Shown here: positions 44,801-47,800 of the stretch, one piece after another | How the letters are laid out: every line of letters begins with the position of its first letter | Numbering within the stretch: the first letter of the stretch is position 1 | Assembly: GCF_030013595.1 (NCBI RefSeq) | Contig: NZ_CP122768.1 | Origin: Escherichia coli | GTDB taxonomy: Bacteria > Pseudomonadota > Gammaproteobacteria > Enterobacterales > Enterobacteriaceae | Strand: one strand, 5' to 3' | DNA length: 64,000 bases | Position numbers: made by a program

Positions 44801-47800
44801 CTCGCCCACCCGATCGAGGTGAATAACGAAGTCATTAACCACGTGTTGATCGCCTGTGCCGCCGCCGATGCGCGTCACGAGTTGAAAATATTCAGCTATC
44901 TTGCCAGCGTCCTGTGTCAGCATCCGGCAGAAGTTATTGCCGGGTTAACAGGATATGAGGCATTTATGGAGTTACTTCACAAGGGGTGAACTGTGTCGGA
45001 TGCGCCGCATCCGACACTGCATTTATCACCAAAATCAAAAATGTTTAACGCAAGCTATTATAGTCATCGACCATTTCGTTGTACTCGCGTAACGCTCGCG
45101 GAAATGAGTCGTCGACCATCCAGCTGGTGTTTGCATCCTGAAGTTGCTCTTTATCCCAGTCAGAGTACGGAACTTTATCTCTGACGCGGCGAACATATTT
45201 TTTAGCCTCGAGTTGATACTGGTCTGCCGAATTAATGAACGAGAAATTCATACCGCCTTTATCCGCTTCTTTGGCCTGCGCCACCAGCGTTTCCAGTTCA
45301 GAGACTTTCTTCATTGCCGCATCAACATCAAACTTCTCTTGCGAAATCAGGTTATTAATTTGTTTCGCTGAAATCATGACTGCCAGAGAGTAGTAGTGGA
45401 ATGTTTTCCCTTCTCTTTGTTCAATATTTTTCAGTTCCGCAAGCTGGCGCTTATCGTTAATTTCCTGAATCGCCGCATGATAAGATTCTGCTACAGGTTC
45501 AAAGGCTTCAAGATTTTTTAAGAATGTCTGGTGGGTGATGCTGCCAACTTACTGATTTAGTGTATGATGGTGTTTTTGAGGTGCTCCAGTGGCTTCTGTT
45601 TCTATCAGCTGTCCCTCCTGTTCAGCTACTGACGGGGTGGTGCGTAACGGCAAAAGCACCGCCGGACATCAGCGCTATCTCTGCTCTCACTGCCGTAAAA
45701 CATGGCAACTACAGTTCACTTACGCCGCCTCTCAGCCCGGTACGCACCAGAAAATCATTGATATGGCCATGAATGGCGTCGGATGTCGCGCCAGTGCACG
45801 CATTATTGGCGTTGGCCTCAACACGATTTTCCGCCACTTAAAAAACTCAGGCCGCAGTCGGTAACCTCGCGCATACAACCGGGCAGTGATGTGATTGTCT
45901 GCGCTGAAATGGACGAACAGTGGGGCTACGTCGGTGCTAAATCACGTCAGCGCTGGCTGTTTTACGCGTATGACAGGATGCGGAGGACGGTTGTGGCGCA
46001 CGTCTTCGGTGAACGCACTCTGGCCACACTGGAGCGTCTTCTGAGCCTGCTGTCGGCCTTTGAGGTCGTGGTATGGATGACGGATGGCTGGCCGCTGTAT
46101 GAATCACGCCTGAAGGGAAAGCTGCACGTTATCAGCAAGCGTTATACTCAGCGCATTGAGCGGCATAACCTGAATCTGAGACAACATCTGGCAAGGCTGG
46201 GACGGAAGTCACTGTCGTTCTCAAAATCGGTGGAGCTGCATGACAAGGTCATCGGGCATTATCTGAACATAAAACACTATCAGTAAGTTGGAGTCATTAC
46301 CTGTCTGGTGCAGCGTTTTCCCTTTCGCAAACGCATCGTCTTTATAATTTTCCTGGGTGTAATATTTATCCATTTCGTTAATGGTATTACCCAACGCCAC
46401 GGCAGCATCAATATAACTCACCGCCACGCCATCAATAGGTTGCAGCGCAGGCGTTAACGCCACGACTCTTTTTATTCCTTTTTGACACTCAGAGAGATTG
46501 GATTCACTAATGCCGTAAATGCCATAAACAAGGCTCTCTTTACCTGTTGGCCCCTGTTTAAAATCTTTCAGCCAGTCAGCGTAACGCGCCAGACTGTTCT
46601 GTACAGGAATCTGTAACTTGTTGTAGCACTTGATATAGACATCCATTTTTTCGTCGAAAACCGCTTGTTCATCGACCACCGGTTGCGCAGGCGTTTCAGG
46701 TTTAACTTCTGCTTTTGCAACGGGAGCTTCAGTAGGTTTCGCTTCAGGAGCTGGTGCGGCAGGTTGACTATTGGCAGGCGGGGGCGTTTCTGTTTCGGCT
46801 TTTTTATCATCACAACCCGTGAGACCGAGGGCCATGATGGCGACTATAATAGCGGAAGATAATAAATTCCTTTTCATTTAATTGCCTTATAAATATATAG
46901 ATAAGAGAGTGAACATAATAAATGAAAAAAGAAAACGCCACTACACGCGTTTTGTTTATAAATAAAATAATAAAATTCACGAAATGAATAAGTCCTGCAA
47001 TTTAATATATATCGCAGGACTTATTTTAATTAATTGCTCAAACGCTGCGGATGGGTATAAACCGTTGCCCGGCCCGGTTTACAAAAGCCCACCAGCGTCA
47101 AATTACAGCGTTCAGCCACTTCTACAGCAAGTGTGGTCGCGGCAGACACCGCAAACAAAATCTCTACGCCACACATCGCTGACTTTTGCACCATTTCATA
47201 ACTGGCACGGCTGGAAACCAGCACCGCACCTTGCTGCCAGCTTTCCCCTTCTTGTGACCGGCGGCCTAACAGTTTGTCCAGCGCCACATGGCGACCCACG
47301 TCTTCATGCCCGCCGACCAGTTCGCCAGATGGCAACATCCAGGCAGCGGCGTGAGTACAACCAGTCAGTTGCCCCACTGGCTGAAAATCGTTGAGATGAC
47401 GTAATGCATCATCCAGTTTGTTGAGATCAAACGTCTGGGTGAACGGTAGCGGCTGCACCGGTTTTCCGATGTCATTAAGTTGCTCCACGCCGCATACGCC
47501 ACAGCCCGTACGTCCCGCCAGCGCCCGGCGGCGCTCCTTCAACCCCATAAAGCGGCGGCTGGAAAGCTCAATTTGTACTTCAAGACCATTACAGGAAGGA
47601 ACGACATCCATGCCGAAGATATCGCGCGGACTTTCTATTATCCCCTCGGAAAGCGAAAAACCGAGCGCAAAGTACTCAAGGTCTTTGGGCGACGCCATCA
47701 TCACCACATGCGAAATGCCGTTGTAGACCAGCGCAACGGGAACTTCTTCCGCGACCTCATCTAACCGTGGGTGTTGTAAATCATCACGCCGCCATAACTC

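Follow-up and report, generated by a model that had tools for sequence, protein, structure and literature searches.

The gene yiiG lies interrupted in the 64-kb stretch of Escherichia coli DNA analysed here, referred to below as the window: a copy of the insertion sequence IS1 splits its reading frame in two. This arrangement raises the question of how the element came to reside in the gene, whether the disrupted allele stems from a single event or from several, how far it has spread and what its consequences are for yiiG and its neighbours. The features of the locus are collected in Table 1.

Table 1. Coordinates of the features discussed in the text, as positions in the window
Feature	Position	Strand	Remarks
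frvR	43241-44989	+	
yiiG 3' fragment	45045..45533	-	codons 190-351 and stop, without promoter or start codon
Target-site duplication TGTCTGGTG, left copy	45525..45533		9 bp; yiiG codons 190-192 (His-Gln-Thr) on the minus strand
IS1 element	45534..46301	+	complete, 768 bp; insA/insB' antisense to yiiG
IRL, left terminal inverted repeat	45534..45556	+	23 nt, GGTGATGCTGCCAACTTACTGAT; identical to IRL of K-12 IS1A
Sigma-70-like promoter match	45541..45568	+	overlaps IRL; consensus match only; position is that of the described weak PIS1 (PMC12428005)
insA	45589..45864	+	GTG start, 91 aa; zinc-ribbon and HTH repressor / IR-binding protein
insAB' transframe gene	45589..46286	+	232-aa DDE transposase after a -1 shift at A6C
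AAAAAAC (A6C)	45840..45846	+	slippery site for programmed -1 ribosomal frameshift (role: PMC12428005)
yiiG 5' fragment, chimeric 218-aa ORF	46221..46877	-	YiiG residues 1-192 and 26 IS1-encoded residues
IRR, right terminal inverted repeat	46279..46301	+	23 nt, GGTAATGACTCCAACTTACTGAT
Target-site duplication TGTCTGGTG, right copy	46302..46310		9 bp
fdhD	47030-47863	-	
604-aa ORF	55136-56950	-	uninterrupted; between yiiE and fabY

Anatomy and identity of the element

The element in yiiG is a member of the IS1 family. The hallmarks of IS1 comprise a length of 768 bp, imperfect terminal inverted repeats of about 23-30 nt (GGTGATGCTGCC... / GGTAATGACTCC...), the insA/insB' gene pair, a frameshift at A6C that gives rise to a 232-aa InsAB' protein, and a target-site duplication of 8 or 9 bp (PMC12428005); the copy in the window displays this size, these ends, this coding layout and this type of duplication, together with the corresponding protein domains. 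Its inverted repeats are imperfect, with IRL and IRR matching at 19 of 23 positions, and are identical to those of K-12 IS1A at 23/23 and 22/23 positions, respectively. The repeat finder recovered the same ends as a 23-nt inverted repeat, GGTGATGCTGCCAACTTACTGAT / ATCAGTAAGTTGGAGTCATTACC, 19/23 complementary and located exactly inside the direct repeat pair formed by the target-site duplication.

On the plus strand, positions 45783 to 46286 form the open insB frame, and its fusion to insA by a -1 shift at A6C produces a 232-aa InsAB' without a stop codon. This protein scores 242.8 bits against the NCBIfam equivalog NF033558, 'IS1 family transposase', whose cut-off is 100 bits, and harbours the Pfam domains Zn_ribbon_InsA, HTH_Tnp_IS1 and DDE_Tnp_IS1 (PF03811, PF12759 and PF03400), all at full length; the DDE_Tnp_IS1 match spans model positions 1-131 of 131 with an E value of 3.6e-74. 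A promoter and terminator scan around the locus returned nothing besides the promoter-like site at IRL, the counts being no higher than shuffle expectation. One IS1 left end is present in the 64-kb window, i.e. the window contains a single IS1 copy. A preliminary description of this stretch had reported a complete 768-bp IS1 with its ends and insA/insB present, which is borne out by the inverted repeats, the A6C site, the NF033558 match and the Pfam domains. The integrity of all these features, along with the occurrence of identical copies at many loci, suggests that the copy in yiiG may be active.

Compared with IS1A of K-12 MG1655 (NC_000913.3 19796-20563), the element has the same length of 768 bp without indels, the same 23-nt IRL, the same succession of insA, A6C and insB', a 232-aa InsAB' and an 8-9-bp target duplication. 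The two copies are separated by 51 substitutions (717/768 identical, 93.4%), the InsAB' proteins agree at 219 of 232 residues and IRR differs by one base. The closest named isoform compared is an IS1X2-family copy in strain CUWW10, identical at 746/768 positions (97.1%). That copy also resides in yiiG and in the same orientation, but 23-24 bp away and flanked by an 8-bp duplication, CGCAAACG; furthermore CUWW10, unlike the window, carries a second IS1 copy upstream of yiiG.

A perfect match, 100% over all 768 bp, is found with IS1 copies of porcine ETEC and edema-disease E. coli, which are located on both chromosomes and plasmids. These copies, annotated in RefSeq as 'IS1 family transposase, programmed frameshift', include those of UMNF18 (on the chromosome, in rcsA), O139:H1, O141:H4, ETEC17xx and the EC5xx series. 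They differ from the element in the window in their insertion site only and, among the copies listed, none is in yiiG.

The interrupted gene and its reconstruction

The order of genes at the locus, frvR (+), yiiG (-) and fdhD (-), is the one in which yiiG is found in K-12, and yiiG is intact in K-12 MG1655. Within the window the 5' part of the gene now forms a chimeric ORF whose stop codon sits in IRR-proximal IS1 DNA, and the first in-frame start codon of the 3' part is Met242 at 45377. Deletion of 45534-46310 in silico yields an uninterrupted yiiG ORF of 351 codons. The restored protein is identical to K-12 YiiG (b3896) at 331 of 351 residues (94%), without gaps, and contains the domain DUF3829 (PF12889) at residues 73-349, matching model positions 2-285 of 285 with an E value of 4.2e-101. 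A predicted lipoprotein signal peptide, retained in the 5' fragment, has the lipobox LTGC at residues 19-22, after a hydrophobic N-terminus, and the K-12 record annotates the yiiG product as a lipoprotein; an NCBIfam search with YiiG returned a sub-threshold and uninformative lipoprotein match only. The earlier proposal that the two halves rejoin in frame is thus correct, removal of IS1 and one repeat copy giving a full-length 351-aa homologue of b3896.

The insertion has duplicated yiiG codons 190-192, which read CAC CAG ACA. The two copies of TGTCTGGTG constitute a direct repeat of 100% identity, 777 nt from start to start, as established both by reading the sequence and by the repeat finder, and each copy abuts an end of IS1 exactly. 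An exact search of the 64-kb window finds the 9-mer at these two positions only, against a chance expectation of 0.47 occurrences. The perfect flanking repeat reported in the preliminary description is accordingly present at both ends, and the interval of 45525-46310 given there, which comprises IS1 and both repeat copies, is right to the base.

As DUF3829 is cut roughly in half, yiiG::IS1 is probably a null allele. The gene is monocistronic and convergent with frvR, so that the insertion is not expected to be polar on its neighbours.

The empty site in a near-isogenic pig strain

The uninterrupted counterpart of the locus is found in strain HCP5S3_I2. When this genome is compared with the window (positions 1-45533 and 46302-64000), the two are colinear over 63.2 kb, free of indels and distinguished by 11 SNPs. 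On the HCP5S3_I2 sequence the left and right alignments share exactly the 9 bp of the target, which indicates that this strain carries the empty site; its yiiG is annotated as intact and contains a single TGTCTGGTG. The reconstructed yiiG region, 1,124 bp long, occurs without a single change in the HCP5S3_I2 genome, and alignment to an uninterrupted allele, the check that had been proposed for the locus, therefore yields base-for-base identity. HCP5S3_I2 and a second strain, LCP30S3_I5, both from pig faeces in the UK, match the window at 100.0% over 24.1 kb around the site, IS1 aside.

Distribution of the junction

A search of 5,426 complete E. coli genomes with the whole interrupted locus as query gave no instance of the same yiiG-IS1 junction, and a 39-mer across the left junction had 0 matches in metagenome contigs. 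By contrast, an exact-sequence look-up placed the chimeric 218-aa ORF on at least 11 public contigs derived from at least 9 NCBI assemblies. Assemblies with the junction comprise GCA_900448395.1, GCA_012931135.1, GCA_021649415.1, GCA_002517595.1, GCA_002460785.1, GCA_002968075.1, GCA_021649105.1, GCA_021649585.1 and GCA_021649405.1. The most extensive of these matches is that of GCA_900448395.1, whose 3.43-Mb contig UFZA01000001.1 shares 6,657 bp with the window at 100% identity, a stretch that encompasses the whole IS1 and both junctions; this contig probably represents the source strain or a sibling of it. In 8 draft assemblies the yiiG-IRR junction is identical, with 0-1 differences in about 3.7 kb, and the contigs stop 92-177 bp inside IS1. 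The exact protein of the intact allele occurs in 533 blocks of the collection as opposed to 11 contigs for the chimeric ORF, which argues that intact yiiG is ancestral and common.

The event belongs to a known class and the yiiG::IS1 allele is already present in public assemblies. An insertion private to one strain is rejected by the occurrence of the chimeric ORF on at least 11 contigs; the presence of the junction in at least 9 assemblies implies that the insertion marks a small clade rather than one strain. The allele is apparently a young, derived marker of this clade, which seems to be pig-associated, and the identical flanks point to a single origin of the shared junction.

These observations also refine two suggestions of the preliminary description. 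The insertion had been regarded as recent: on an evolutionary time scale this is right, as the flanks do not differ from those of the empty-site allele, but it does not hold in the sense of a single-strain event, since the junction is shared by at least 9 assemblies. The insertion had also been seen as marking the strain as distinct from the K-12 reference. MG1655 does have an intact yiiG, but the insertion is not needed as a marker: the whole window is already non-K-12, as follows from the 94% identity of YiiG to its K-12 homologue and from the 51/768 differences between the element and IS1A.

A probable single, recent insertion

The reading that we favour, with a probability of about 0.92, is that an IS1 isoform associated with pig strains inserted once and recently into the chromosomal yiiG of the ancestor of the clade by simple insertion, generating a null allele that has since been inherited vertically. 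The underlying process has been described for IS1: InsA represses the IS1 promoter and competes for the ends, and a rare -1 frameshift generates InsAB', the protein that brings IRL and IRR together in a synapse and integrates IS1 where the target has been cut with a stagger; repair of this cut yields the target duplication (PMC12428005). On this model, the isoform that circulates among pig-associated E. coli, both on plasmids and on chromosomes, would have transposed into yiiG, between frvR and fdhD. InsAB', made by the -1 frameshift at A6C, would have bound both 23-nt ends and joined them to a target cut with a 9-bp stagger, and repair of this stagger would have doubled yiiG codons 190-192. 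What is predicted to remain of yiiG is an N-terminal stub of 192 residues, extended by 26 residues that IS1 encodes, and a C-terminal part that lacks a promoter. This single recent event would have taken place in the ancestor of the small clade, with vertical inheritance thereafter. The insertion is probably near-neutral, conferring no selective advantage.

Adaptive loss of yiiG as a less likely alternative

A different view is that knock-out or lowering of YiiG is favoured in certain niches, such as those with antibiotic or envelope stress, that IS1 disruptions have been selected repeatedly and that the insertion in the clade rose for this reason. Several published observations lend themselves to this view. 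The gene has been listed as a hotspot for the insertion of mobile elements, replicated in hospital and random SRA collections of E. coli (bioRxiv 10.1101/527788); mutations enriched under antibiotic selection include two in the yiiG promoter and one that turns its start codon from ATG into ATT (PMC11742677); and in ETEC a MarA binding site has been reported inside the gene (PMC5684230).

Independent IS1 insertions in yiiG are also encountered in other complete genomes. In strains H2, CH4784 and CUWW10 an IS1 is inserted at nt 544/545 of the gene (target CGCAAACG(C)); the three IS1 sequences are mutually different and, in these three complete genomes, the duplications measure 9 bp, 8 bp and 9 bp, so that the site looks to have been reused by separate insertions. 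Strain A21005-2 has an IS1 at another site in yiiG. The alleles of H2, CH4784, A21005-2 and a second group composed of HS-C, EcPNK006 and M23917 share with the window allele the target gene and the IS family, and the yiiG fragments in these complete genomes are annotated as DUF3829 pseudogenes. They differ from it in position, in IS1 isoform and, for some, in orientation, which identifies them as independent events. Among matches with at least 80% coverage in the 5,426 genomes, 10 are in the same orientation and 18, found by a query with IS1 inverted, in the opposite one, all of them representing IS1 elsewhere in or near yiiG. An orientation bias of IS1 in yiiG was considered and rejected, as both orientations occur.

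By a rough count from the hit tables, IS1 lies in or next to yiiG in about 25-30 of the 5,426 complete genomes, several of which look clonal. A crude neutral expectation, calculated as a median of about 11 IS1 places per genome x 1,056 bp / 5 Mb x 5,426, amounts to about 12 genomes. The disruptions are hence only about two-fold above this crude expectation: the enrichment is at most modest, it could simply reflect a dispensable gene, and the intact allele is far commoner. Adaptive loss is thus an unlikely explanation for the allele in the window, and it is similarly doubtful that yiiG is a recurrently selected target of loss-of-function mutations of which this allele would be one of many convergent knock-outs. 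If recurrent selection did operate, a DUF3829 lipoprotein of the inner envelope would gain a role in susceptibility to antibiotics or host stress.

Improbable readings: repeated insertion, regulatory effects and misassembly

The single insertion favoured above assumes common descent of the shared junction, and the same junction might instead have arisen through recurrent independent insertions at one preferred site. IS1 has regional preferences, the 40 bp preceding the element (45494-45533) have a GC content of 37.5%, and the nt 544/545 site provides a case of occupation by differing copies. The shared junction presents a different picture: no more than one change is seen across the IS end and 3.7 kb of flank in any assembly with the junction, the IS1 isoform is the same wherever it is fully assembled, and the site is unoccupied in complete genomes outside the junction group. 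Repeated insertion at this position is therefore very improbable.

No more credible is the idea that the element acts mainly on the expression of its neighbours, fdhD or frvR, by transcription that leaves the element or reads through it. Insertion sequences can, as a general statement, activate or silence neighbouring genes (PMC12428005), but this IS1 lies in the middle of a gene, 720 bp from fdhD and 544 bp from frvR, and the IS1 promoter is described as extremely weak (PMC12428005). Read-through would moreover run antisense to the 5' fragment of yiiG and to fdhD, and the convergence of yiiG with frvR leaves no downstream cistron. Finally, misplacement of an IS1 copy into yiiG by the assembler, conceivable for a multicopy element at which short-read contigs break, is effectively refuted by a perfect 9-bp duplication abutting both ends, which assemblers do not make, and by the recurrence of the junction in at least 9 assemblies made independently, one of which covers both junctions on a single contig of 3.4 Mb.

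A SopB-like reading frame elsewhere in the window

Some distance from yiiG, the window contains a 604-aa ORF, embedded in an island of low GC content (35-44%). Although no interruption is present, its RefSeq annotation consists of two pieces, a 'transposase' and a partial hypothetical protein. Pfam, NCBIfam and PDB searches, by sequence and by profile, were without match for this ORF, and its relatives are few and all annotated as 'hypothetical'. In a 20-member alignment of the family, C499, D504 and R505 are invariant within GCKSAKDRT, which corresponds letter for letter to the catalytic CX5R motif of the inositol polyphosphate 4-phosphatases INPP4A/B (PMC3248162). Foldseek ranked SopB first, the answer coming from structure comparison only. 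Of the 5,426 complete E. coli genomes, 1,061 carry the entire ORF, O157:H7 among them, and K-12 has only a 65-bp remnant of the gene. Limited literature searches did not find a description of a SopB/IpgD homologue in E. coli. The ORF looks like an unrecognised phosphoinositide phosphatase of the SopB/IpgD fold in the accessory genome of E. coli; it is a more interesting lead than yiiG::IS1 and merits separate evaluation.

Significance of the yiiG::IS1 allele

The insertion in yiiG is a textbook case of simple IS1 insertion that has turned a non-essential gene into a pseudogene, and its importance is limited. Its practical value is that of a lineage marker, as a single PCR spanning yiiG would separate the clade from near-identical strains such as HCP5S3_I2. 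For the biology of the gene, the allele joins the reports according to which yiiG tolerates, or possibly favours, disruption by mobile elements.

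Recurrent IS1 insertion in yiiG

The lipoprotein gene yiiG has been independently struck by IS1 in other E. coli strains, as seen in four loci (L001–L004), among them those of H2, CH4784, CUWW10 and A21005-2 in no set order, and in further matches to the interrupted locus among complete genomes (H71–H95). These insertions are found in both orientations. One target, CGCAAACG(C), lies 24 bp away from the IS1 site of the window and is occupied in three genomes by differing IS1 isoforms, and CUWW10 accommodates an additional IS1 copy that lies upstream of yiiG, 59 bp from its start codon. 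The independent insertions agree with a published claim naming yiiG as an insertion hotspot for mobile elements (bioRxiv 10.1101/527788).

Features located in the window and in other yiiG loci (locus coordinates are those of each locus)
Feature	Sequence	Coordinates	Strand	Remark
IS1	L001	2053–2821
IS1	L002	1839–2606
IS1	L003	2052–2819 and 3432–4199
IS1	L004	2053–2820
604-aa uninterrupted ORF	window	55136–56950	-
Low-GC island around the ORF	window	about 53800–57300
SECIS_3	window	48639–48697	+	Rfam; within formate dehydrogenase alpha-subunit gene
naRNA4	window	28266–28343	+	Rfam
ES036	window	23220–23261	+	Rfam
ClpQY promoter element	window	9511–9568	+	Rfam
L31 leader	window	4847–4899	-	Rfam

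Surrounding genes and RNA elements

The window differs by 11 SNPs from HCP5S3_I2, a near-identical pig strain with an empty yiiG site, and two of these SNPs lie in the gene adjoining the insertion, fdhD (47030–47863, 834 bp). Both (47406 and 47815) alter the protein sequence: the G17S change is found only in the window lineage, and A153V only in HCP5S3_I2. That two protein-changing SNPs fall in fdhD is probably due to chance.

The annotation of HCP5S3_I2 also places a 'carbohydrate porin' gene between rhaM and frvA (about 38400–39800, minus strand) and, downstream of yihX (59600–64000), an aldose 1-epimerase, two MFS transporters, a zinc-dependent alcohol dehydrogenase and an aldolase. This latter gene order appears unlike that of the yihW–yihO sulfoquinovose cluster of K-12.

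The five elements matched at the gathering threshold in an Rfam scan of the window are all usual for this chromosomal region, as expected. The gene hosting SECIS_3 is labelled fdnG by RefSeq; its K-12 counterpart is fdoG.

A candidate phosphatase gene in a low-GC island

The 604-aa ORF is annotated in RefSeq as a 'transposase' plus a partial hypothetical protein, and sequence searches of Pfam, NCBIfam and PDB returned no match to it. Among complete E. coli genomes, about 20% have the gene at full length, O157:H7 being one of them; K-12 retains only a 65-bp remnant. The ORF carries an invariant GCKSAKDRT (CX5R) motif, the same as the active site of INPP4A/B, and its product is a candidate for an unrecognised phosphoinositide phosphatase or effector.
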